23,430 bases of DNA from a virus (lineage: Duplodnaviria > Heunggongvirae > Uroviricota > Caudoviricetes), in the IMG/VR virus record IMGVR_UViG_2671181100_000007, positions 1 through 23,430 of that record. One strand, written 5' to 3'. The notes below the pieces were generated by a model, which was given only the letters and a program-made list of their open reading frames with translations, had not been told where the DNA came from and ran no database searches. Below are positions 2,213 through 15,217 of the stretch, piece after piece. The position numbers and the translations under genes were made by a program. How positions within the stretch are numbered: the first letter of the stretch is position 1; each line of letters opens with the position of its first letter.

Positions 2213-2250
2213 AAACCCTGATGGTTGGCGCCGTCAGGGTTTTACTTTTT
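2213..2250 (+). terminator. Intrinsic terminator hairpin (strong on plus strand, weak on minus strand just after the ImmA stop)
   Basis: AACCCTGA-N12-TCAGGGTT followed by TTTACTTTTTT on the plus strand. Confidence 0.5.
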
Positions 2251-2770
2251 TAATAACTGTTTTTGATAATCTGCTGCGTGTGCAGAAACCCCACACGCTT
2301 CAGCTATTTCTTCTACAGACATGCCTCTTAGTAGAGCTGCATGGCTGTAGGGGACGAGCAACTCTCCACTAAAGCACTTTGCCTGCCACTCGCTGCTTTC
2401 AAAAGCTCGAATTTCCACTCCTGGCTCAGCTCGAGCAAAAGCAATATTTTTATGCATTAGTAGATGTCCAATCTCATGAGCAACCGTCATACGATCACGC
2501 CCGTTTCCTTCATGAGCTCCCTCATAAACATCTTCACGAAGGATGATAAGCGAGTCCTGAGGCATAGTTAGCCCATGTGTCCCCCCCCATCTCCTTTTCA
2601 GAAGCTGTTTCAAACGAAAAGTTAGGTAAGATCTGCGGTAGTGCGAACTCCAGCATTTCAATTACGGGAAAATACAAATCATGTATTTTCAGCATCGAGC
2701 GTAATTTGCTTGTTAAACCACGCACCGCGTTGCGGCTTAAAGGTGGTACTCGATAATCTTGTCCGCTCAA
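2242..2770 (-). CDS. ImmA/IrrE-family zinc metallopeptidase (HEIGH motif), reading frame split at a C8/G8 homopolymer (2581-2588); intact only if the tract is 7 nt
   Basis: TTG start at 2770 with AGGAGG SD gives the N-terminal 78 codons; the C-terminal 139-codon ORF (2242-2661) contains TVAHEIGHLLMH (HExxH). The two frames join if one G is removed from the G8 run (minus-strand GAG ATG GGG GGG ACA CAT ... reads EMGGTHGLTMPQ). Confidence 0.7.
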
Positions 2771-2784
2771 ACAGAGCCTCCTAC

Positions 2785-3144
2785 TTATTGTTTTTTAGTT
2801 AACAATTCACGTAGACGTTTAAACTCATCATCACTTAATTCATCGAAATTACGTGCAAATGCCATCGCTACTTCACGAGCATTTTGATTCTTACCCGATA
2901 GATTAATCTCAACAGATTGTTGAGAATCACGCGCCGCTTTTGTTAACTCATCTCCTGCATGAACGCCTTCATTAGTGAAATAGCTAATGATACTTTTCAA
3001 TACAGGATCGGTTACAGCCCGCTTTCCTGTTTCAATTGCTGAGAGGTAAGACGAGGTCACGCCCATAGCATCAGCCATGCTTTTCAGCGTGACACCGACG
3101 TCTATACGTAATTTCCTTACTTTCTTACCAAACGGCGTTAACAT
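2785..3144 (-). CDS. XRE-family helix-turn-helix transcriptional regulator (ImmR-like partner of the metallopeptidase)
   Basis: 119 aa; N-terminal block VRKLRIDVGVTLKSMADAMGVTSSYLSAIETGKR fits the Cro/C1-type HTH pattern; ATG at 3144 with AGAGG SD; stop 12 nt upstream of the ImmA start (operon). Confidence 0.8.
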   Translation of the reverse strand: MLTPFGKKVRKLRIDVGVTLKSMADAMGVTSSYLSAIETGKRAVTDPVLKSIISYFTNEGVHAGDELTKAARDSQQSVEINLSGKNQNAREVAMAFARNFDELSDDEFKRLRELLTKKQ

Positions 3145-3520
3145 ATTTTTGCCTCTCTAATGTGCGTGAGAGTCAGGTACAACTCGACTCTGAGTGCAAG
3201 ATAACAAGCCGCAGATGAAAAATCAACTGATTTCTGTTAATTTTTGCATCGAGCTTTAGTTCATCAATGTAGACAGATGATAGTTCATATTGTTCTACTT
3301 AGCTTGCCAGAGAATGCTAAAAGTACTTGCGATATCCCATTACTCATTGATGTATATAGATACAAGTACCTTGCGACATCGGAAATGGAGCAGCTTCAGC
3401 GTTATGAAAGCTGCTCCACGGGATTTCTGGGGGCGTATAATCAAGGCTCTGAAGTTATAGCAAATTGCTCATCTGAGGGCTCTGGCATACAGTTCGCAGG
3501 TGAGCAAACTTAACCGGCTG

Positions 3521-3568
3521 GAAAATATTTATAAATCGTCTTCACCCCCTCCTATTACATCGGCTACC
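3521..3568. repeat. Decayed copy (A) of the invertase 3'-end sequence
   Basis: AAATCGTCTTCACCCC...ACATCGGC; reverse strand reads ..VADVIGGGEDDL*; about 80% identical to copy B. Confidence 0.5.
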
Positions 3569-3638
3569 GACCCAATGTTTTAACTGCTCAGACCAGAAAT
3601 ATCTGGAAGCTTTAGGCATCTTCTTGGAAGATAGATGA

Positions 3639-3712
3639 GCGCAAAGACGCACACAGCAATGATGTTATGTAGTATTTTCCCCTTGAGTGTGCCTGCTCAA
3701 GGGGATTTTTTA
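3639..3712 (+). repeat. IR2 left copy (~74 bp), inverted copy of 7724-7798; contains terminator hairpin 3678-3711 (TCCCCTTGAG-N8-CTCAAGGGGA + T6)
   Basis: Aligns base-for-base with the reverse complement of 7724-7798 with about 4 mismatches; hairpin followed by TTTTTT on the plus strand. Confidence 0.65.
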
Positions 3713-3728
3713 TCGCCGTATTGTACTG

Positions 3729-3780
3729 GCAAATATTAGTAAATCGTCTTCACCCCACGCCTGTCACATCGGCCACACGC
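3729..3780. repeat. Decayed copy (B) of the invertase 3'-end sequence, abutting the stop of the recombinase-like fragment
   Basis: CACGCCTGTCACATCGGCCAC matches the invertase 3' coding sequence CACGCCTGTCACATCAGCCAC; reverse strand reads ..VADVTGVG* and, one frame over, VKTIY*. Confidence 0.55.
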
Positions 3781-3794
3781 GGCTGGACAGGCGG

Positions 3795-4217
3795 TTAGTC
3801 CGGTATGTTTCTCGCGCTACTACTGCTTACGTTAACGTCTGGTAATGATCTAGCGGCGCGACGTAAAGCGGCGTTGAAAGCAATTATAGTGACCGGCCGG
3901 CGTTGGTACTTCACACGGTTAGAATGGCTCTGAAATAAAAAAACATCTTCTGGATAGCGTTCTCTTCTACGAGCAATGATCCCCTCCACTGGAGGGGTTG
4001 ATTCAACACGTAGCTCTTTCAGGTGATCCTGTTTTCGTATCAGTATCAAGCCATCATCAATATCATCATATCGAATACTCAGCAGCCTTCCAGCGCTTAA
4101 ACCTGTGTGAAAAATTAACGCCCACAAGTCTGCCCATGTATCCGAGATGGAAACAAGATTGCTGTTAATAGTTAAAAATTGTTCAAAACTTATTGTTTTC
4201 TTACCGTTCACGAACAA
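3795..4217 (-). pseudogene. Tyrosine-recombinase-like fragment (FimB/FimE/Xer-type catalytic-domain N-terminal half; lacks the HxxR and Tyr region); TTG start, no SD
   Basis: 140-aa ORF with HTGLSAGRLLSIRYDDIDDGLILIRKQ resembling the first conserved box of tyrosine recombinases (TGxRxSELxxLxxxDID); ends before any H-x-x-R ... Y motif. Confidence 0.4.
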
Positions 4218-4294
4218 ACCAAACTGTTTTCAAAGCTGAATGAATTGATTAAGCCAAACGTAACATATCAGGAAAAGTAGTGAAATCTTTGTCT

Positions 4295-4842
4295 TCAAGT
4301 CGCCGGGAGGTACTTGTAGATTGTTTTCACGTCCACGCCTGTCACATCAGCCACCTGCTGCCGGGTAGCGCCAGTACCCAACATCCTGCGGCATCGCTCC
4401 ACAACCTCAGTGGTCATTACCCGCCGGCGGCCACCAATACACCCTGCTCTCTCGCCGCCACCAGGCCTGCGCGGGTCCTCTCCACAATCAGCTCTCGTTC
4501 CATCTCTACCAGCGCGCTCATGACGTGGAAGAAGAAGCGGCCGGCGGCCGTGCTGGTATCGATGCTATCGGTCAGGCTTCGGAAATTTACCCCGCGGGCC
4601 TGCAGCTCCGAGACCAGAGTGATTAAGTCGCGCACGCTGCGCCCCAGCCGATCCCGTTTCCAGACCACCAGCACATCGCCCGGGCGGAGCCGCCGTAAGG
4701 CGCGCTTTAACCCTGGCCGCCGGGCATTTTTCCCGCTGGCCATATCCTCAAAAACCAGCTCACATTCTGCGCGGAGCAGCGCGTTTTTCTGTAAATCGAG
4801 GTTTTGATCCCCGGTGGATACCCTCGCATAGCCAATCAGCAC
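4295..4842 (-). CDS. Serine DNA invertase (Gin/Pin/Hin/Cin family); frameshifted near 4436-4440 (catalytic domain ORF 4417-4842; C-terminal HTH continues in another frame to TGA at 4295-4297)
   Basis: GTG start with AGGAG SD; MLIGYARVSTGDQNLDLQ...VVWKRDRLGRS...SLTDSIDTSTAAGRFFFHVMSALVEMEREL is near-collinear with Mu Gin as recalled, including the catalytic Ser in RVSTGDQ. The shifted frame after codon ~135 reads IGGRRRVMTTEVVERCRRMLGTGATRQQVADVTGVDVKTIYKYLPAT (HTH domain). Confidence 0.85.
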
Positions 4843-4885
4843 TATCTAACTCCTTGAAATAGCTGATTGTAAAAAGCCACGGCCA

Positions 4886-4939
4886 TTCGCTCAAACCCTC
4901 GTTTGAGCGAACGCCTTTTTTGGAGCAAAAAACATGGCC
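4886..4939. repeat. Left inverted repeat (54 bp) containing a 26-bp gix/hix-like crossover site TTCGCTCAAACC-CT-CGTTTGAGCGAA (4886-4911), plus the RBS and ATGGCC start of the SGNH tail-fibre gene
   Basis: 53/54 identical to the reverse complement of 11198-11251; site has the Hin/Gin-type architecture (12-bp imperfect inverted half-sites with AAACC/GGTTT cores around a 2-bp centre). Confidence 0.75.
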
Positions 4940-6880
4940 TTTAACCCGGAGCTGGGGAGCACGTCTCCCGCTGTGTTGCTCGATAACGCCGAGCGCCTGG
5001 ATAAGCTGGTCAATGGGGATGCGGCCACCGTTCCCGACCGGGCCGGACAACCGCTGGACTCCTGGCGTCTTATGCTGCAGACCTTCGCTGCTGTTGTCGA
5101 AAATACCCGCCAGAACCTGATCCCACTTGGCAAGCAATACCAGAGTGTGGAAGAGGCTCAGGCTGATATTGCCAGTATTCCAGAAGGTGCCACCACCTAT
5201 GCACGCAGTCCGGATGATTCTGCTCTGGCGATCGAATACCGAAATGTCTCCGGGACGCTGACGGAAACCGGGCGCAGGATGCCATCACAGAGCTCTGTCG
5301 ACGCAGTTATCCAGTTTATCGATGAGTTTATTGCCAGTGGGGCTGTCAGTGGTGACTTCTTCCCTTTCTTTGTCGATGGGGCCGGGAACGTGCCTGTGTA
5401 CTGGGATAACGGTTTTGCGGTTTCCCGGATTGCCGCATCGTTGTATCAGATGATCTATGAGGATGTTCATGCGCGGCTGGGGGATGCGTTGAATGTGCAG
5501 GTAACAGGGGTTTCCCCTCTGTTTTTCCCGTTATTCATGGACAGCGCCGGCAATGTACCGGTGTACTGGAATGGTGGGCTGGATGCGTCGGCAATTGCGA
5601 CGGGGCTGCTGGAAAAAATATGGGCTTATATCAACGATATCATCGCCAGCGCGCTTAACCAGAATGTCCCTCTGGTTTCCCCTGGTTTTGTACCAGGGAT
5701 GATGGATGCCGCCGGAAACGTCCCGTTCTGGTTCCAGGATGGCGAGCTTGATGCGACGGGCATCGGGCCAAACATCAGGGGAATTTTTGCAAGATGGTAT
5801 CAGCGGCGTATGTACACCGCTGCTTACAACATTCCTCTGCATACCGACGGGCGAACTCTGTGGCGCTGGAAAGCGAAGAAAGCTCAGCTCAAAGCTGGCC
5901 TTGCAACCCGGCCACACTTCATGCTGACGGGTGACAGCTGGACGCAGAATAACGAACTGGCGACCGCTATCGCCGGGCTGCTGCATGATGATTATGGTGA
6001 TGCCGGTCTTGGCTGGCGCACGGTTAACTACGGAGCGGCACGCGATGGCTCGAATATCAACCGCTCTGCAGGGTGGAATTTGTATGACTCATCGCCGACA
6101 AGTGGTGCGCCGCTGTACGGCTGCGGAATTGATGGTCAGTCAGTCAATACGACCATGGCGACCGACTATTTCAGGGTGACGAATGTCCGCTGCACGGACT
6201 ACCGTATTTACTACCAGGATTTGAACGGGCGTTTCCAGTACGGCTACGACGCTGGCGGGATCACTCAGTGGACAGAGGTTGTCTGCGGGAATACCGGCAC
6301 GACAAAATCGGTGTTGCTGACAGGCATGGCCGACGAGGTCAGAACCATATACATCAAAACCGATGGCAACACGGGGCGTGTCGCTATCCACGGGTTTTAT
6401 CTGTGGCGCAGCGGCGTTGCGGGGTGTGTGATGAGCAAGGCGGGGAATTCCGGGATTCTTGCCGATCAGTTCCTGCTGTTCTCCGACAAAATCGCAGAGT
6501 ACCTGAGCACAATGCAGCCTGACGTGATTGCGATTGTCATCGGGAATAACGATTACAGGATTTCTGAATCGACAGCCACATTCCGTACTGCTCTGCAAAC
6601 GTACATTGCTGCCTGTCGCGCCGTGCTCCCTGATGTGAGCTTTATTCTGATGGCACCACCCCGCACGAACGGAACAGCAATAACGCCCATCGTTGATTTC
6701 CGTGATGTCATGTACGACCTGTCACAGACGCTGAATGTCGAGTTTTTCAGCATCTATGACCTTTTCGACTCCTGGGCTGAAATGAACAGCCTCGGCTGCT
6801 TTCTCGATAACCTGCACCCGAATGCTACGGGCAGCAACCTGGTCGCAACGTCACTCTACAATGCACTGATTAAAGGCTAA
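4934..6880 (+). CDS. Tail fibre/tailspike protein (648 aa): shared N-terminal anchor domain, three tandem ~55-aa repeats, C-terminal SGNH/GDSL hydrolase (esterase) domain
   Basis: N-terminal ~115 aa homologous to the N-terminus of the 1113-aa fibre. Repeats FPFFVDGAGNVPVYWDNG / FPLFMDSAGNVPVYWNGG / VPGMMDAAGNVPFWFQDG. SGNH blocks: MLTGDSWTQ (GDS), VIGNNDY (GxND), DNLHPN (DxxH). Confidence 0.8.
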   Translation: MAFNPELGSTSPAVLLDNAERLDKLVNGDAATVPDRAGQPLDSWRLMLQTFAAVVENTRQNLIPLGKQYQSVEEAQADIASIPEGATTYARSPDDSALAIEYRNVSGTLTETGRRMPSQSSVDAVIQFIDEFIASGAVSGDFFPFFVDGAGNVPVYWDNGFAVSRIAASLYQMIYEDVHARLGDALNVQVTGVSPLFFPLFMDSAGNVPVYWNGGLDASAIATGLLEKIWAYINDIIASALNQNVPLVSPGFVPGMMDAAGNVPFWFQDGELDATGIGPNIRGIFARWYQRRMYTAAYNIPLHTDGRTLWRWKAKKAQLKAGLATRPHFMLTGDSWTQNNELATAIAGLLHDDYGDAGLGWRTVNYGAARDGSNINRSAGWNLYDSSPTSGAPLYGCGIDGQSVNTTMATDYFRVTNVRCTDYRIYYQDLNGRFQYGYDAGGITQWTEVVCGNTGTTKSVLLTGMADEVRTIYIKTDGNTGRVAIHGFYLWRSGVAGCVMSKAGNSGILADQFLLFSDKIAEYLSTMQPDVIAIVIGNNDYRISESTATFRTALQTYIAACRAVLPDVSFILMAPPRTNGTAITPIVDFRDVMYDLSQTLNVEFFSIYDLFDSWAEMNSLGCFLDNLHPNATGSNLVATSLYNALIKG

Positions 6881-6886
6881 TTTCTT

Positions 6887-7687
6887 ATGAACAATATCTA
6901 TATCCCAAAACTCGGTGACGTCGTAATTCCGGGAACTCATCCGAAAAAAGGGCATTTCATGCAGCCGGATTTACCTGTTATCGCAGGGTTGAAAGCGATG
7001 TACATCCACGGCGGAACCTTAGAGCTGAGCATGAGAAACCGTGCCGACAACACCGCTCCACTGACCAAAGTCGGTTCGCCATCGATCCAGGCTGATTTCG
7101 GGGCGGTCTGTAGTTTCGGTAACTGTTTTGATACCGGGAAAGTTTCTACCAAAAACCAGACCCATATCGTGATCTGTAAGCCGGTAAAACCAACGGCGGC
7201 TACCGAAACCCAGCAGGCCTTCATGATGGGTAACTACAGCTATTCCGGCTCACCGGCAGTGTATCGCGGCGACGGACTCGCTTTTCTGTTTTCCGGGCAA
7301 AGTCTTTACGGGGCCTTTGTAGAGGACAATAACGTCACGCCAACGAACATGATCAACTACTACAGCGCGGCATACGACACAACGAAGTGGGCCGCTTTTG
7401 TGGAGCTGGTTGATGGTGACAATGGGATTGCCAGGATTGCTGCCAGGCAGGGAGGACCGCTTAACTGGCAGAACTCGAAAGCGTTGGTCAACCGAACCGC
7501 TTATACCGACCGCACGATCCGGATAGGTTCGCATCATGCGCCCGCTGCATACCCTGCAGGCGCTGCCATTACGATGGGGATGGAGCTGATTTTCGAGACA
7601 GCGCTGACACAGGCGCAGGTTGCTTCCGTTCTCGACAGTATAAGTGCCTATCTCAGTTCGGCATGGGGAATTACCGATTTAGGTTAA
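6887..7687 (+). CDS. Hypothetical protein co-encoded 6 nt downstream of the SGNH fibre gene (possible fibre-associated accessory or second receptor-binding subunit)
   Basis: 266-aa ORF, same strand and cassette as the fibre gene; no recognisable catalytic motif; weak SD. Confidence 0.45.
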   Translation: MNNIYIPKLGDVVIPGTHPKKGHFMQPDLPVIAGLKAMYIHGGTLELSMRNRADNTAPLTKVGSPSIQADFGAVCSFGNCFDTGKVSTKNQTHIVICKPVKPTAATETQQAFMMGNYSYSGSPAVYRGDGLAFLFSGQSLYGAFVEDNNVTPTNMINYYSAAYDTTKWAAFVELVDGDNGIARIAARQGGPLNWQNSKALVNRTAYTDRTIRIGSHHAPAAYPAGAAITMGMELIFETALTQAQVASVLDSISAYLSSAWGITDLG

Positions 7688-7723
7688 ATATATACGTTAC
7701 TGATTACCAGACGGGCAGGTAGA

Positions 7724-7798
7724 GAAAAAATCCCCCTGAGCAGGCACACTCAGGGGGAAAGTACTGCATAACATCATTGCTGTGTGCGTCTTTGCGCG
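7724..7798 (-). repeat. IR2 right copy; contains minus-strand intrinsic terminator (hairpin 7731-7758, U-run from 7725-7730) downstream of the 1113-aa fibre gene
   Basis: TCCCCCTGAG-N8-CTCAGGGGGA with A6 on the plus strand (T6 on minus); about 74 bp inverted identity to 3639-3712. Confidence 0.65.
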
Positions 7799-7861
7799 CA
7801 GCATATTTTCAGAGAAAACCTCCATCGTTTCCAGATGTTTCTTACTATTTCAGACTGTGTA

Positions 7862-10800
7862 CTAACCCTGGTTGTAAAAAAGCCACAAATCAGACAACGT
7901 TGACGCCACAAAACTGATCTCTGACAGCGTGTCTCCCGCAGCATTCGTGCCGTCGAATCCAAAGAACCGTTTAGGGAAGCCAGGCTTTGGCCCGTACTGC
8001 GTTTTCAGTTTATCCAGCAGACTGCCCGCTGCCGATAACGCTGATGGCCGGTCTGAAAAAAACAGCGGCAGCAGCGCAAAGGTGATGGTATTGGCAGCAC
8101 CCCGGCGGCTTTCGGAAATGCAAAAATCCACCTCCTTAAACGCCCCCATTCCGCTGGTCGCGGACAGAATGAAATTAACCAGGTCAAAGGCCGGTTTACG
8201 GTCCAGCAGTCTGCAGGCTAACAGATAGTTGTTAACGGCATAGCTGGCGTAGTGCAGGTACATCGCCCGGCTCGGGTATTCCGTCGCTGCATCCTGCAGA
8301 ATTCCTTCCGCCTTCATAAACTGGTTACGGTCCGTCAGCAGCGCCTCAACAGCATTAAAGGCTGTCAGGTAATGCCCGCTGCTGTCCTGCCCGGTATAAA
8401 TCCCCAGCGCCAGCGCCCGCAGTCCCGTGGCATTGGCATTACTGGCACCAATCCCGGTGGCTGTGCCAGCAATCTGAATACCGCCGTTGGCGGCCCAGTA
8501 CGTATAGACGGCATCCGCCAGGCTTTTTATCCCCGCCTTCAGCTCGGTAATTTTGGCCGGGTCACCCGCCTTCACCGCCATTTTGTAGAGCCACTCGTAA
8601 CAGGGAATGCTCAGACGCGACTGAAACTGCAGCCCCCACCACCCGCCGGTATACGCGGCCCCCGGATTGATGATGGAGCCCTTATCCAGTGCCATGTAAT
8701 TTTTAAAGGTGGCGTACACCGTATCCAGATCACCGGTGCCATAACGGGCCAGCAGGAAAATGTCCGCCGGTACACAATAAAATGCCGGATATTCCAGTTT
8801 ACCTTCACCGTTGATGAATGGCATGCCACCGCCATATTGGCGGGCGTCTTCCGATTTCCACCACTCCACTGAACCGCGAATATGGCAGGCCATTTTTTCC
8901 AGCAGATCCTGACGGATAACGCCCGCATAACCACAGTCACCCGCAAATCCTACCGGGCGGTTAAGTGCCTGGCTGTTAATGAGGGCATTCGTGGCATTCG
9001 ACGCCGCCGCTGTCACACTGTTATCGCAGTCAATCCACAGCTCGTGTGTCCAGGTCCAGCCTTTTTTCACCGGCCAGTTCAGGAACGAATAATCGGTAAT
9101 ATTCGATGAACCATACCGCCATCCGGCATCAATGCGGGTGTACGCTGCCCCGTCGGGTACCAGCGCCGTACCGCGAACCGGACGGTTTGGCCCGTAGGTT
9201 GGCCCGTCCCGGTGAACGTCTCCGTTTGCATAGACCAGCGCCGCCGTAAAGCGTTTACCCGTTGTGGCATCGGTAAAGTAAGCCAGCGCACGGGAGGTGT
9301 CGTAGGTGTACACTCCGTCGTTAAGCAGAAGTCGGGAGTACACCCCGAACAGCACGCCAACGGGAATATCCTGCATCGCCGTATTCATGACACGGACAGA
9401 AACCTTCCCGTTTCTGAACAGACGGTACCGGACTGTTGCCATCAGGGCGCCCTCTGCCAGCGTGTTTCCGGCCCGGTTACGTACCGTCATTTCCAGCTCG
9501 GTAAAGACCGGCCCTGTGTTCACCAGCCGGATGGATGCCCCCAGAATAAGCCGCTCATCCACCGCCACCCCGGCAACCACCTGGCTGTAATAGCAGCCGT
9601 GTGTAATGTTATGAACAATACCCGCCGGGTCGGTAATGCTGGTCAGGGCAAATCCCTGCTGGCGTAAAAAGGTGTATTTGTACCCGCTGACCGTCACGCT
9701 GTAACCGTCGGCAGTCTTCACCAGCTGCGGCCAGGAGCCAGAGGCCAGATCAGTCCGGCGACGGTTCCAGGCTTTCACCTCGTAATACTTCTGCGCACCA
9801 CTGGACAGCGAATCCAGAATGAAAACAGACCCTGCCGCCAGGGAGCCATCCGCGTGATAGCTGATATTCGACTTCTGACGCGGGTTAACATGGATATCAT
9901 CAGCAAACTGGGCATCAAACGTATTACCGTCAGTATCTGTCACCAGCAGGGCATCGGAATCCGGGACGTCACCGGGTGAGAAACTGACCCTGATTTCTAC
10001 CGGATAATTAACGTACCCGGCTGAAAGGGTATTTTTGACGTCCGTACCTTTTCGCTGATAGTTACCCACCCGCACCGATCGCACCACTTTACGCCGCCAG
10101 ACGGCATAACTTCCTGCCGGAAGGACAGCCAGACCGGATGTGGTGAAGCCTTCAGTGCTGACGGTATAGTCACCGGCAGGCAACAGGGCTTTGAAATAAT
10201 CCTCAAACCCGGTCTGTGCGATAGTGGTATCGTACGCCGCATATCCGGCAAACAGGCAATCCGGAGCAATAGTTTTCAGGTAGTCTCCCACCGTGGCGGC
10301 AGTAAAGCCCGCAGCAGTCAGCTCTGCCAGGGTGACCACAAACTGAATGGCATTCGCAATTGCCGTACCCGAAATGGACTTCCTCGTCACCGACGTGACC
10401 AGTCCGGCCTGAGCGGGGGCGAATTTCCCGGTTAAGTCCAGCGCGATATAGTTTGAACCGGCCACCGGGACGCCGAAGCCAGCAGGCAGGTCATAGCGCA
10501 CCCGGACCAGCGTTGCGGTGGTTTCCAGAATGCCCACATACTTCAGGTCCCGGAACCGGAAGAGGCGATAGGCTGACCAGAATTTTCCCTGAGCGTACTG
10601 CGTCTTTGTTCCCGGCAGTACAAAGGCCATCACTTCAGAACCCGCTGAAGAAAATACCAGCCGACTGTAAACCGTGTTCACATCCGACGTTGTCGCCAGG
10701 GTACGCAGTTCAATTACTGAATCTTCCGGTAGCATCAGCGCAGGGTCGTCCAGCAGCTTTAACCCTGTCAGATCCTGGTAGTCGCCATATTGTCGCTTAA

Positions 10801-11203
10801 TACCTTCCCGGTCTGTCAGCGTCGCTGTATATGCCAGCCCCGCTTCAACCCCTTCCTGCGAGAGCATTTTCCGCCCCGTGGCCGTTAGTGTCCCTGCCAC
10901 GTTCATATACTCTGTAGCCAGCGCGCTGCCGTCCTGGCTGCGCACGTAGGTTGTGGCGTTCACAGGGATATTCGCGATATCTGCCTGCGCTGCCGTCAGG
11001 GTCATGTACTGCTTACTGAGCGGGATGATGTTCTGCCGAATTTCGTCATTCTTTGCCATCATCTGGCGCCAGGTATCGAGCGGTTCGCCTGCGCGGTCGT
11101 TAACCGTTCCGGCCGGACCGTTAACCAGCTCGTCAGCGCGCTTGACGTTATCCAGGAATATTTCAGGCGTCGTCGTTCCCAAAGGCGGGTTAAGTTCGGC
11201 CAT
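7862..11203 (-). CDS. Tail fibre/tailspike protein (1113 aa) with shared N-terminal anchor domain and large unassigned C-terminal region (candidate receptor-binding or polysaccharide-degrading domain); the cassette currently in the expressed orientation
   Basis: ATGGCC start inside the right IR, 23 bp after the gix-like site; same strand as the upstream tail operon; N-terminal ~115 aa homologous to the 4934 ORF. Confidence 0.8.
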   Translation of the reverse strand: MAELNPPLGTTTPEIFLDNVKRADELVNGPAGTVNDRAGEPLDTWRQMMAKNDEIRQNIIPLSKQYMTLTAAQADIANIPVNATTYVRSQDGSALATEYMNVAGTLTATGRKMLSQEGVEAGLAYTATLTDREGIKRQYGDYQDLTGLKLLDDPALMLPEDSVIELRTLATTSDVNTVYSRLVFSSAGSEVMAFVLPGTKTQYAQGKFWSAYRLFRFRDLKYVGILETTATLVRVRYDLPAGFGVPVAGSNYIALDLTGKFAPAQAGLVTSVTRKSISGTAIANAIQFVVTLAELTAAGFTAATVGDYLKTIAPDCLFAGYAAYDTTIAQTGFEDYFKALLPAGDYTVSTEGFTTSGLAVLPAGSYAVWRRKVVRSVRVGNYQRKGTDVKNTLSAGYVNYPVEIRVSFSPGDVPDSDALLVTDTDGNTFDAQFADDIHVNPRQKSNISYHADGSLAAGSVFILDSLSSGAQKYYEVKAWNRRRTDLASGSWPQLVKTADGYSVTVSGYKYTFLRQQGFALTSITDPAGIVHNITHGCYYSQVVAGVAVDERLILGASIRLVNTGPVFTELEMTVRNRAGNTLAEGALMATVRYRLFRNGKVSVRVMNTAMQDIPVGVLFGVYSRLLLNDGVYTYDTSRALAYFTDATTGKRFTAALVYANGDVHRDGPTYGPNRPVRGTALVPDGAAYTRIDAGWRYGSSNITDYSFLNWPVKKGWTWTHELWIDCDNSVTAAASNATNALINSQALNRPVGFAGDCGYAGVIRQDLLEKMACHIRGSVEWWKSEDARQYGGGMPFINGEGKLEYPAFYCVPADIFLLARYGTGDLDTVYATFKNYMALDKGSIINPGAAYTGGWWGLQFQSRLSIPCYEWLYKMAVKAGDPAKITELKAGIKSLADAVYTYWAANGGIQIAGTATGIGASNANATGLRALALGIYTGQDSSGHYLTAFNAVEALLTDRNQFMKAEGILQDAATEYPSRAMYLHYASYAVNNYLLACRLLDRKPAFDLVNFILSATSGMGAFKEVDFCISESRRGAANTITFALLPLFFSDRPSALSAAGSLLDKLKTQYGPKPGFPKRFFGFDGTNAAGDTLSEISFVASTLSDLWLFYNQG

Positions 11204-11251
11204 GTTTTTTGCTCCAAAAAAGGCGTTCGCCCAAACGAGGGTTTGAGCGAA
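11198..11251. repeat. Right inverted repeat (54 bp) containing gix/hix-like site (11226-11251; minus strand TTCGCTCAAACC-CT-CGTTTGGGCGAA)
   Basis: Inverted copy of 4886-4939 with one mismatch; lies between the J-like gene stop (11280) and the fibre start (11203). Confidence 0.75.
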
Positions 11252-11279
11252 AGAAAAGTTGAAAGGGATTTTTTTGGTA

Positions 11280-14200
11280 TTAAGCAGCGTCGCCGGGGTA
11301 TGTGGCGTCGTCGTACTGGTAGAACGATTCGAGGTATTCTTTAGCGGTGACCTGGCATGTTCCGTCAGACTGCGGGGCGATCTCCTCTACAATGGCGTCG
11401 TAGACGTGGCGCGTTGATCCGCAGAACACCAGGCGGATCGGCTCGATGGTTGCCGACGACAGGTCAACCTTCATCGGGTCATCAAACTCGCTCAGGTGCG
11501 GGACTGACAGCTGAAAATCGCCTACCCTGCTCGCCACCATCAGCCCGGATGCAGAACCATCCTGATAGCGGATCAGCGCGCGGGGATTTTCGAAAGACCA
11601 GTCCAGCGGCTCCGTAACGGTGAACGTTGTCACGCCACCAGCCGTTGTCATCGCCTCCACCAGACAGGAAATCGTGTTGTTACCCGGAATATCATCCGTG
11701 AGCACAATGCGATCGCCCAAGTTGTAGCACAGCGCGTCCAGCTCGGTAGTGGTCTGGAACGTCACCCGCTGCTGCAGGTATTTCATCAGGCGACGCATGC
11801 CGAGCTGGTAGGCGTGATCCTGATTCAGTACCCCATCGAGTTTGTAGTTTTCGATTTTCACTGGCGTTGGATTGTCCGACGTCCGGCATTTAACGGTCTC
11901 CTCTGCCCAGGTGACGCCGTTGATGTACGTCACGTCGACGCCATCAAAATCATCGTCAGACGGTACGATAAATCCGCTTTGCAGCTCCTCCACCATCTCA
12001 TGCGGAGTGATCACGCCAGTCCAGGGCTTAATCCCCTCACGGTTGACCGTCGCCAGGCCATCGCTCAACAGGAAGCGGGACTTCCCGGCATTGGCTATCT
12101 TCTGCAGCATTTCCAGCGCTGAGATACTGTCGCCGGTAGCGAAATCGAAATACTCTCCCCGTGGCGTCCAGTACGCAGACTCCAGCGCGTTGATGGTGTC
12201 GGCATCCATCTCCAGTCCCAGCGAGTTCCCGACATGCAGCAGCGCCCCAGAAATGGTTCTGGCCGTTCCTGAGTCATAGGCCCGCGTGGCCACCACGTTT
12301 ACGCGGCGGTCCGACTGAGCCGCCAATTTGCCCCCCGTCTCAACGGTCACCGCCATCAGCGACACGCCGGGATAGGATGAAGGGCGCGTCAGCAGTCGCC
12401 CGCGCAGTGCCTGCCAGTACATCGAATCCCTGGCGTTGTTTGAGCCCTGCTCATTGCGCCGGCGACAGCGAACCTCTACCAGCCCTGGTGAGCTGAGGGT
12501 GATCCGCTCAGTGAATCCCAGCCCGTTGACGTTTTTAAGCGCATACTCTCCCTGGTGACTCACCCACCCCGATCCGGAACCGTAGACGCGATACTGAATC
12601 TCCCACTCCACGTGGCGGATCCGTTTTTTGCCCTTACTGTCAAAGCCACAGATGCCGTTCGGGAAGGAGAAATTCACCTCGAATGCATCCACCACTTCAT
12701 TCTCAGGGCAAACCAGGAACGGCCCCAGCCAGCTCAGCGTGTCGTTAAGACCAGTGGCCTCATAGTCGATCATCGTCCGGGCGGAGAATCCCGGCCATGA
12801 CTCATCAACGGCACCGGAAACCAGGCGCACCACCGTCGCCGTCGTGCCGTCAGCTGACACAATCCGGTACTCATTCCCGCGGTGAGCAAGTGAAAGCCGT
12901 TGCACCCCCTCCGGCATCCCGGAGAATGCAGTGCCCGTGGCGCTGTTATAGGCAAGCGTCACATTCGCCGTTACCGCCGGGCTGCCGCCGGTTGATGCCG
13001 TGCCGGAGGTGTAAACCGGAGCATCACCGAAAACAGCTGCAGGCAGCGAAGAGGACGTGATCGCCCCACCCGCGAACGGACTGGCCGACTCGGTTATCAG
13101 TACGGTGCCGCCGTTGTCCTGTGCAACCAGGCCGGAGCCAGTGAGTCCCTCGGTGATGGCCGCCAGCAGTCCCGACATCGAGACATAGTTAGCCACCAGC
13201 GACACCGGGTAGGTAACCCCCTGCCAGGTGATCGTGAACGTGCTGGAGCTGGTCGAAAAATCGTAGGTGGTCGGGGCCGCACTGGCCTGGACTTTTGCCG
13301 CACTCCCCCCGGTGCCGGGCACTGCAGCCTGACCGGGGGTATATGACGCGATAAACAGATCGTAATCGACAGAGTTAAACCCCAGCGTCACCGGCATTCC
13401 AACCACCGGCGCGATCTCCGTCAGCAGCGGGCTGGCGATAACGCTGTATCCAGCCGCCGTGGTGATCTGGTAGTTCGCCGGGGCTTTCAGTTCGACCACG
13501 GCGCCAGCGACCCAACTGGGCGGCAGTGCGTTATCGTTCTCGTCATTATCGTCATCATCATCCGTATCCAGCCCGGTAAACGTTACGCTCGAACCGGATA
13601 CGGTCATGCTGTCTGCGATAATGTCGTCTGCGTCCGGCGACGTCTGGGCCATATCCAGCCCGGTGCCGGATGACGTCCCGCCCACTTCGGTGGAGTTGAC
13701 CCAGTTTTCGCTGCGCTCATCACCGGAAACGTCCGCGCCTGGCGGGTAATGGGTGCTGCTGAATCCCGGTAGCGTTGAAGCTGGCGTACTGCCAACCCGG
13801 ATATCGCCATTGGTATAAATCAGATCACCGACACCGAGACACAGCAGCATCTGGACGCGCATTTTCGTAGGATCGGCGGCATCAAACCGGGTAACGGGCT
13901 GCACGACATAATCCGGATAAATACGCACGCGCCCAAAAACTTCACGAATCGCATCACCCAGTTTCGCGCTGTTTCCTTTAGCGGGGTTCAGGTCGAGGCT
14001 TCGACCTGTGGATGACGTATAGCCGCCGGCATCAATGTTACTCATCATGAACAATGAATAAGCCGCAGATGCGACGGCAATGCCCACTCCTATCCAGGCA
14101 ATTGTCGCGGCCTCAAGCCCGAAAGGCACCGGATAAAGCCGGACATCACTATCAGGGTGGATCACGAAAATAGCCCATTCGCCTGGCGGAATTGACTGCC

Positions 14201-14348
14201 CCTCAACCTCAACGGTCAGCGGTGGGACATCCCGATCCTCGTAGCCTTCAACATTTGCCACCAGCCAGCTGCGAATACTGGTTACACCATGCTCATGCGT
14301 TTCGAGTGGTTCACCGGGAAGCCGGGACGGGTAAAAACGAATGGTCAT
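11280..14348 (-). CDS. Tail tip / host-specificity protein (J-like central fibre, 1022 aa)
   Basis: Large ORF at the distal end of the tail module, translationally coupled (ATGA overlap) to the NlpC/P60 gene; N-terminal hydrophobic segment; acidic run TDDDDDNDEND. Confidence 0.7.
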   Translation of the reverse strand: MTIRFYPSRLPGEPLETHEHGVTSIRSWLVANVEGYEDRDVPPLTVEVEGQSIPPGEWAIFVIHPDSDVRLYPVPFGLEAATIAWIGVGIAVASAAYSLFMMSNIDAGGYTSSTGRSLDLNPAKGNSAKLGDAIREVFGRVRIYPDYVVQPVTRFDAADPTKMRVQMLLCLGVGDLIYTNGDIRVGSTPASTLPGFSSTHYPPGADVSGDERSENWVNSTEVGGTSSGTGLDMAQTSPDADDIIADSMTVSGSSVTFTGLDTDDDDDNDENDNALPPSWVAGAVVELKAPANYQITTAAGYSVIASPLLTEIAPVVGMPVTLGFNSVDYDLFIASYTPGQAAVPGTGGSAAKVQASAAPTTYDFSTSSSTFTITWQGVTYPVSLVANYVSMSGLLAAITEGLTGSGLVAQDNGGTVLITESASPFAGGAITSSSLPAAVFGDAPVYTSGTASTGGSPAVTANVTLAYNSATGTAFSGMPEGVQRLSLAHRGNEYRIVSADGTTATVVRLVSGAVDESWPGFSARTMIDYEATGLNDTLSWLGPFLVCPENEVVDAFEVNFSFPNGICGFDSKGKKRIRHVEWEIQYRVYGSGSGWVSHQGEYALKNVNGLGFTERITLSSPGLVEVRCRRRNEQGSNNARDSMYWQALRGRLLTRPSSYPGVSLMAVTVETGGKLAAQSDRRVNVVATRAYDSGTARTISGALLHVGNSLGLEMDADTINALESAYWTPRGEYFDFATGDSISALEMLQKIANAGKSRFLLSDGLATVNREGIKPWTGVITPHEMVEELQSGFIVPSDDDFDGVDVTYINGVTWAEETVKCRTSDNPTPVKIENYKLDGVLNQDHAYQLGMRRLMKYLQQRVTFQTTTELDALCYNLGDRIVLTDDIPGNNTISCLVEAMTTAGGVTTFTVTEPLDWSFENPRALIRYQDGSASGLMVASRVGDFQLSVPHLSEFDDPMKVDLSSATIEPIRLVFCGSTRHVYDAIVEEIAPQSDGTCQVTAKEYLESFYQYDDATYPGDAA

Positions 14349-14725
14349 TGCCAGAACTCCACGCGAACAAAGCGCCGCTTAAATCGCGGCAACGGCAGAA
14401 AAGTTACGTTCGTGCCTGGGTTGCATTCCGCCACATGCAACAGACCATCGATACTGACTACGATCCCTACATGGGTGACAGTCGACCCGGAATAACAGGC
14501 CACCCCGGCCCCTTCGCAGGGTTCGCAGCGCTCAAGGGTAAGCATCATCCGGCGCGCTTCCCGGTCGAGGCCGCCGTTGTCTTTGGTGACCCCGGCAAAA
14601 TCGGGCCAGACGGGTAAATTCAGGTCGCGGCGTATCTCGTTCACAATGCCGAAACAGTCGAGTTGCGGGTATACGCGCCCGCCCTTCAGCCAGGTGACTG
14701 AACGGTATTTATCAGGGTTAAACAT
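14345..14725 (-). CDS. NlpC/P60 (C40 peptidase)-family tail protein
   Basis: 126 aa with Cys in DCFGIV and His in THVGIVV, spaced as in NlpC/P60 catalytic cores; position matches tail-tip assembly genes. Confidence 0.65.
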   Translation of the reverse strand: MFNPDKYRSVTWLKGGRVYPQLDCFGIVNEIRRDLNLPVWPDFAGVTKDNGGLDREARRMMLTLERCEPCEGAGVACYSGSTVTHVGIVVSIDGLLHVAECNPGTNVTFLPLPRFKRRFVRVEFWQ

Positions 14726-14734
14726 TGGAATTCC

Positions 14735-15217
14735 TTAGCTGATATAACGCAGTCCGGGGAATACAGGGAGCGTGTAGCGGTAACGCGGCCAGGCGGTATC
14801 AAGGATATTCATATAACCCGCGGTAATCTGCACCTCTGTCGCCGTCCAGGAGCCCGACTTGATTTTCAGCGTATACGGCACTTCCGCAGGGGCCGCCAAA
14901 TCCGTGGAGATATAACGCCGGTACGTCAGCGATGCAGGCAATCTGTTAGCCAGGGCATTGCGGATCGCCGTGGACACAACACCATCGATATTGCACAGGG
15001 CAAATTTGAGGTCCTGCGTGCCGTCCGCATTGCGCGCCGGCAGAGCAATGTCTATCGCACAGGCGGAAAACGTTACGGTATCGCCGTTCTCCGTCGTTGC
15101 CGTAATACCCTCGTAGCCCTGGCACAGATAATGGACGTCAGAACCAATGGTGATCTGCAGCGTTTCAATGATCACCTCCGGTCCGCTGCTGGCGTAGAGG
15201 CGTTTAATCTGCGTCAT
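14735..15217 (-). CDS. Minor tail protein (distal tail), start taken at internal ATG 15217
   Basis: ORF in the tail operon between the M-like and NlpC/P60 genes; longer ORF-track version (to 15304) would overlap the upstream gene by 100 nt. Confidence 0.5.
   Translation of the reverse strand: MTQIKRLYASSGPEVIIETLQITIGSDVHYLCQGYEGITATTENGDTVTFSACAIDIALPARNADGTQDLKFALCNIDGVVSTAIRNALANRLPASLTYRRYISTDLAAPAEVPYTLKIKSGSWTATEVQITAGYMNILDTAWPRYRYTLPVFPGLRYIS

Follow-up and report, generated by a model that had tools for sequence, protein, structure and literature searches.

In phage Mu (Gin and the G segment) and in phages P1 and P7 (Cin and the C segment), alternative tail-fibre cassettes lie on an invertible segment, and the gene for a small serine invertase adjoins it. 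The crossover sites of these systems, such as gix (TTCCTGTAAACCGAGGTTTTGGATAA) and cixL, are 26-bp imperfect palindromes with an AAACC-NN-GGTTT-like core. In the Mu G, P1 C and e14 P segments, the crossover site is located within the fibre ORF, so that alternative C-terminal fibre parts are placed on a constant N-terminus, and the opposed receptor-binding cassettes occur in both orientations in nature. Both invertase pseudogenes and cross-complementation among the Din invertases have long been known. PinQ, PinR and PinE each invert the P segment of e14, the Salmonella H segment is inverted by Fin of Fels-2, and the Mu G segment is inverted by PinE (PMC12529663).

Another arrangement is found in Klebsiella phage KPP5665-2 (GP19–GP23) and the prophages P0103 and P0106, in which tipJ is followed by a receptor-binding-protein (RBP) cassette, an inverted RBP cassette with a partner gene, and an invertase gene. 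The invertases of these three are intact (183–192 aa), and an intact version of the architecture is present in KPP5665-2 and many Klebsiella prophages.

Here, a 23,430-nt stretch of viral DNA, referred to as a whole as the window, was analysed. It carries a locus with the gene order of KPP5665-2, P0103 and P0106 and, like Mu and P1/P7, has alternative tail-fibre cassettes on an invertible segment beside the gene for a small serine invertase. The 26-bp site is identical to that of KPP5665-2 and the Klebsiella prophage relatives and shares the core type of gix and cixL, the half-site being TTCGCTCAAACC here and TTCCTGTAAACC in gix. The invertase gene and KPP5665-2 GP23 share about 85% DNA identity, and the repaired protein is 92–93% identical to those of P0103 and P0106; the cassettes differ from those of these relatives, and the allele of the window is frameshifted and resides in E. 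coli. Unlike in Mu and P1/P7, the invertase gene is a pseudogene and the switch lies in a lambda-like siphovirus tail module, and whole genes are swapped here in contrast to the C-terminal fibre parts exchanged in Mu G, P1 C and e14 P. As in those three segments, both orientations of the opposed cassettes were found (22 versus 2 contigs; L031 and L034). We propose that, like the e14 PinE/P system with PinQ and PinR and the Hin/Fin pair, this prophage segment is inverted by enzymes whose genes lie elsewhere in the genome. The e14 element has an intact pinE of its own that trans action supplements, whereas here the resident gene is dead and trans action would be the sole source of inversion.

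Results

Architecture of the switch and its surroundings

The window comprises E. coli chromosomal DNA and, adjoining it, the tail end of a lambda-like siphovirus prophage of the Klebsiella type. The product of yfdC (1–933) is an exact E. coli protein, and the prophage genes include those encoding the tape measure, tail tube and TipJ proteins. Genes for an XRE-type HTH protein (119 aa) and an ImmA/IrrE M78 peptidase (139 aa), a typical prophage regulator pair, are located on the minus strand between the switch and yfdC (2242–3144).

The 6.3-kb segment (4886–11251) is bounded by a 54-nt inverted repeat with 98% identity between its arms, one proximal to the invertase gene (4886–4939, plus strand) and the other proximal to tipJ (11198–11251, minus strand). 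The outer ends of the repeat are two inverted hix/gix-like crossover sites of 26 bp (4886–4911 and 11226–11251). The site at 4886–4911 is an imperfect palindrome, TTCGCTCAAACC CT CGTTTGAGCGAA, and position 21, in the CGTTTG(A/G)GCGAA half, is A in this copy and G in the copy at 11226–11251. The 26-bp site was invariant in all family members examined, with variable sequence on both sides. The inner part of the invertase-proximal arm contains the RBS and ATG of a 648-aa gene, and that of the TipJ-proximal arm contains the RBS and ATG of a 1113-aa gene; in each ORF the repeat covers the first six bases, namely the ATG and one more codon, and the RBS lies downstream of the crossover site. Since the RBS and ATG are within the repeat, inversion swaps whole genes behind tipJ.

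The gene for the 1113-aa tail fibre/receptor-binding protein (7862–11203, minus strand) lies directly behind the tail operon, which is the expressed position in the window. Of the fixed tail genes, the last one before the switch, on its upstream side, encodes a TipJ-family tail tip protein of 1022 aa (11280–14348, minus strand). The invertase-proximal cassette is composed of the gene for a 648-aa alternative receptor-binding protein with a C-terminal SGNH/GDSL hydrolase domain (4934–6880, plus strand), presumed to be silent in this orientation, and its 266-aa partner gene (6887–7687, plus strand; phrog_4390). The N-terminal 125 aa of the 648-aa and 1113-aa proteins are 58% identical and presumably represent a common tail-attachment domain.

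As RNA entering the segment, the crossover site can be drawn as an 11-bp hairpin followed by CGCC and T6, and the scan flagged it as terminator-like; such a hairpin could attenuate read-through from tipJ into the adjacent cassette. Directly downstream of the invertase gene, a 140-aa ORF (3795–4217, minus strand) gives a match to phrog_19751 and a weaker one to tyrosine integrase profiles (phrog_1, E = 1e-8), and it looks like an integrase-derived fragment. This ORF also accompanies intact and remnant invertase genes in other phages.

The invertase gene is split between its catalytic and DNA-binding domains

The whole Gin-like serine invertase gene runs from 4842 to 4295 on the minus strand. 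Its first part (4417–4842) is a 141-codon resolvase catalytic ORF with a GTG start and a TAA stop at 4417–4419. The product matches Pfam PF00239 (Resolvase; E = 7e-47, residues 3–135) and phrog_125 (DNA invertase; E = 6e-66), and S9 within its YARVST motif occupies the place of the Ser nucleophile (residue 9–10). The second part (4295–4438, minus strand) encodes the linker and HTH_7 domain in the −1 frame (IGGRRRVMT...YLPAT*); the translation to 4295 ends with ..IGGRRRVMTTEVVERCRRMLGTGATRQQVADVTGVDVKTIYKYLPAT* and matches HTH_7 (PF02796) with 31 bits against a cut-off of 23.8. The two domains are not in one polypeptide, as HTH_7 is in the −1 frame and past the stop at 4417–4419, in agreement with the initial annotation of this DNA, which had described a frameshift between the catalytic and DNA-binding domains. 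When one base was restored, the resulting 182-aa protein aligned without gaps to residues 1–181 of Mu Gin (PDB 4m6f, E = 5e-67) and was 92–93% identical to intact Klebsiella prophage invertases of 182–197 aa. The gene is of Din-family descent (Gin/Hin/Cin/Pin) but encodes no member protein.

The lesion was placed by two DNA alignments with five related invertase genes, comprising three full-length intact genes and two 5'-truncated remnants. At 4436–4444 (minus strand), the window has GGG+TGTATT where intact relatives have GGG+GAGAGTA: the relatives read CAG GGG AGA GTA GGT GG (Q G R V G G) and the window CAGGG TGTATT GGTGG. Seven nucleotides (GAGAGTA) are replaced by six (TGTATT) at 4436–4441, giving a net loss of one base with clustered substitutions. 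Comparison with related invertase genes, which the initial annotation had proposed as a check, put the lesion at the expected place. Of the single missing nucleotide near 4436–4440 postulated there, the position and the net effect were borne out; the change itself is a 7-to-6-nt replacement in which the Arg135 codon (R in 117 of 119 homologues) is also lost. Judged from these alignments, the lesion is complex and no simple homopolymer slip. Two further substitutions were found in the catalytic ORF, L63R within the WKLDRLGRS motif (L in 119/119 homologues) and A112V (A in 118/119). L63R, A112V and the loss of R135 concern essentially invariant columns and thus fit decay after, or together with, inactivation. 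The invertase pseudogene is almost certainly real.

A 40-codon ORF with an ATG start (4295–4417) shares the sequence TAATG with the stop of the catalytic ORF. This ATG is an ancestral internal Met codon, which is present in intact relatives too. Programmed −1 frameshifting and transcriptional slippage were also considered and were rejected, because neither an X XXY YYZ heptamer nor a homopolymer of at least four nucleotides occurs in the 146-nt frame overlap (4567–4419).

Upstream of the invertase gene, a sigma-70-like promoter match, TTGAGC-17-TACAAT (4866–4894, minus strand), was found by consensus matching, and its −35 hexamer falls within the crossover site, in the outer half. A similar overlap of promoter and crossover site exists in cin. 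Transcription of the pseudogene may be retained. The region at 4757–4824 (minus strand) is homologous to the annotated P7 cin recombinational enhancer (+19 to +86) and is well conserved with respect to relatives with an intact invertase; its promoter-proximal putative Fis site is GC-rich here, as judged by eye. This region is a putative enhancer. The DNA parts of the switch, namely the two 26-bp sites and the 5' gene region corresponding to the cin enhancer, appear to be intact.

The same C-terminal HTH allele was found as remnants in vB_EcoS-733R5 (L001, 1509–1718) and ST846-OXA48phi9.2 (L003, 1603–1725), with a DNA identity of 91–92% in the initial match and 94–95% over about 1 kb through the downstream 140-aa gene. 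In both remnants the 5' part encoding the catalytic domain is deleted and no switch adjoins, whereas the window retains the full gene length and a working switch. The remnant of vB_EcoS-733R5, an E. coli phage, adjoins a retron-type reverse transcriptase gene, and the other remnant is in a Klebsiella phage. Decay of this invertase lineage has occurred repeatedly.

The frameshifted allele is shared by many assemblies

In a collection of 15 billion proteins, the identical 141-aa product was encoded on 24 contigs. The DNA at 4200–4950 was 100% identical in nine of the ten loci retrieved from NCBI, ENA and Logan (L004–L011 and L013), and L012 was a 98.7% variant that kept the frameshift. With the exact-protein and DNA look-ups combined, the allele is found in at least 16 independent assemblies, and the carriers represent two chromosomal contexts, the yfdC side and the umuDC/sap-puu (sapAB-puuP) side. 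One assembly, GCA_019660835.1, matches the window with 100% identity over 14.8 kb and thus represents the same strain or a clonal one. The PGAP-annotated assemblies list no protein product for the invertase gene, as expected where a gene is called as a pseudogene. The exact allele was absent from 5,426 complete E. coli genomes, in which the best full-length matches were intact genes with 86–87% identity. A scan of IMG/VR with the junction of invertase flank and site returned one locus, L036, a different relative with an intact 189-aa invertase.

The L012 locus, a metagenome contig (ERZ28620730), encodes the exact 141-aa product, and its crossover site (744–769) is joined to a different cassette start (CTTTGATCC...); the flank between the crossover site and the invertase gene differs from that of the window. 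The pseudogene allele has undergone cassette or flank exchange in L012. A near-identical 9-kb module is present in two prophage/chromosome contexts (L004/L014 versus window 3457–14880), and the differences among carriers cluster in the N-terminal half of tipJ (12500–14880) and at the left boundary (3457–3500), a mosaic pattern.

The segment is inverted in two carriers of the frameshift

The orientation of the segment was read on the 24 contigs, with the orientation in short-read assemblies representing the majority of reads; 22 were of the window type and two were flipped. The first flipped locus, L019 (GCA_052207375.1), equals the window over 17.5 kb except that 4886–11251 is inverted, so that tipJ is followed by the 648-aa gene, and it encodes the identical truncated ORF and the identical −1-frame tail. 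The second, L021 (GCA_021062205.1), has a different tipJ variant and is also flipped, with tipJ joined to the 648-aa gene. Complete genes were exchanged, and the proteins of both cassettes are unchanged in the flipped loci. The suggestion of the initial annotation that the switch is locked in its current orientation is contradicted by L019, in which the same frameshifted gene is accompanied by an inverted segment, and by the flip in L021.

The flips post-date the frameshift, because the lesion sits on one molecule with one orientation and all carriers share the identical complex lesion. The segment has therefore been inverted at least once, and probably twice, since the frameshift, with the crossover inside the 26-bp site. 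The order of events, frameshift before flips, can be read from the sequences only in relative terms, as the differences among carriers are mosaic and the switch module offers too few SNPs for dating the frameshift. The 9-kb switch module of the carriers is nearly clonal (0–3 SNPs), which indicates that the flips are recent; with 2 of 24 contigs flipped, it also suggests that flipping may be rare. The skew of 22 versus 2 could result from inefficient heterologous flipping or from clonal sampling alone.

Two alternatives would explain these data by errors in the sequences. The frameshift itself might be a sequencing or assembly error of the window, as the initial annotation had allowed for, and a net loss of one base in GC-rich surroundings is what such an error could look like. 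The occurrence of the same lesion, with the exact 141-aa product and DNA, in at least 16 assemblies from NCBI, ENA and Logan and in both chromosomal contexts, its retention in the 98.7% variant, and its nature as a 7-to-6-nt replacement, which is no homopolymer miscount, make this explanation negligible. Alternatively, L019 and L021 might be assembly artefacts and the switch might have been immobile since the frameshift; repeats can break or mis-join short-read graphs, and the L021 contig stops within the repeat. This is highly improbable, since normal reads and the large k-mers of SPAdes and SKESA are longer than the 54-nt repeat, L019 spans both junctions on a single 22.7-kb contig with all three pieces perfectly identical to the window, and two separate assemblies with different tipJ variants agree. 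The L021 contig ends at the equivalent of window position 11230, one base short of the polymorphic position; this end might reflect a branch in the assembly graph caused by both orientations being present in the culture, an observation that is suggestive only.

The junctions point to site-specific recombination

In both flipped loci, the A/G difference at position 21 of the site travelled with the segment. The crossover is consequently placed in the outer 20 nt, a stretch that contains the midpoint of the 26-bp site. A positive control is provided by L031 and L034, which encode an intact 192-aa invertase and carry the same cassettes in opposite orientations. These two loci share a 7,212-bp inverted block with 99.99% identity; the variants just inside the site have swapped sides, and the exchange falls entirely within the 26-bp site, as in the frameshifted carriers.

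A second inverted repeat of 79 nt (3636–3714, plus strand, and 7722–7800, minus strand) is 92% identical with a perfect run of 31 nt and served as a negative control. Each arm is a copy of a strong intrinsic terminator, TCCCC[CT]TGAGTGTGCCTGCTCA[AG]GGGGA with a T6 tract behind it. The 1113-aa gene ends at one of the copies, and the other, to the left of the invertase region and facing rightwards, is possibly a relic of an earlier rearrangement. No recombination at the 79-nt repeat was detected in the loci that are colinear across both copies (L004–L008, L014–L020, L022 and L037–L040). Together, the junction position, the positive control and this negative control favour site-specific over homologous recombination.

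The remaining explanations for the flips differ in the recombinase. In one, the switch is locked and rare flips arise without any invertase, either through RecA acting on the 54-nt repeats or through an exchange with a related phage. The repeats offer 98% identity and a perfect run of 33 nt, and the low number of flipped contigs (2/24) would fit as well. RecA recombination would favour the longer perfect run, that is, the inner one of 33 nt, but the outer 20-nt run was used in both crossovers although it is the shorter. In addition, the adjacent 79-nt repeat, with its 31-nt perfect run, never recombined in the aligned loci, and the junction pattern matches that of relatives with intact invertases. 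This explanation is accordingly unlikely. In another, the frameshifted gene itself acts in cis in L019 and L021, either through a −1 ribosomal shift or as a split enzyme made of the 141-aa and 40-aa peptides. The segment flips where this gene is the only invertase in the sequence examined, the stop and the in-frame ATG overlap as TAATG, and the promoter-like site is kept. However, the overlap zone is devoid of a slippery heptamer or homopolymer, a frame-restored product would lack Arg135 and carry L63R and A112V at invariant positions, and the ATG of TAATG, as an ancestral Met codon, is shared with intact genes. To our knowledge, isolated catalytic domains of resolvases or invertases do not recombine natural sites, and the Hin DNA-binding peptide loses binding when its N-terminal Gly-Arg arm is removed. 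Residual activity in cis is thus very improbable, whether by ribosomal shifting or as a split enzyme.

Discussion

The model that we favour, and consider likely, is that the resident invertase gene is a pseudogene and that the segment is inverted site-specifically in trans by another Din-family invertase. The lesion at codon 135 parts the catalytic from the DNA-binding domain, and the cis DNA, with its two 26-bp sites and the region equivalent to the cin enhancer, would stay usable. A co-resident or cryptic prophage in the cell would supply the small serine invertase that carries out the flipping. Dependence on a trans-acting invertase was part of the biological reading in the initial annotation, and it is the part favoured, if indirectly, by the flipped carriers of the frameshift, from which we infer the trans enzyme. 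PinE-like DNA is present in 4826 of 5426 complete E. coli genomes (89%), at a median of two places per genome, and it is plausible that trans enzymes would be available in the carriers. With the resident gene dead, the switch would be an orphan one that is not locked and whose flip rate is set by foreign enzymes.

A literature search found no description of this whole-gene switch type or of the frameshifted allele. The event itself is ordinary, combining routine prophage gene decay with, most likely, textbook cross-complementation. With this locus, the Klebsiella-type switch of whole receptor-binding-protein genes is documented in E. coli. When genomes are annotated or host ranges predicted, a frameshifted invertase should not be equated with a fixed tail-fibre orientation. 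More generally, the public assemblies provide a natural example of how an inversion switch can persist after the loss of its own recombinase, since its cis-acting DNA is sufficient provided that the cell contains related invertases.
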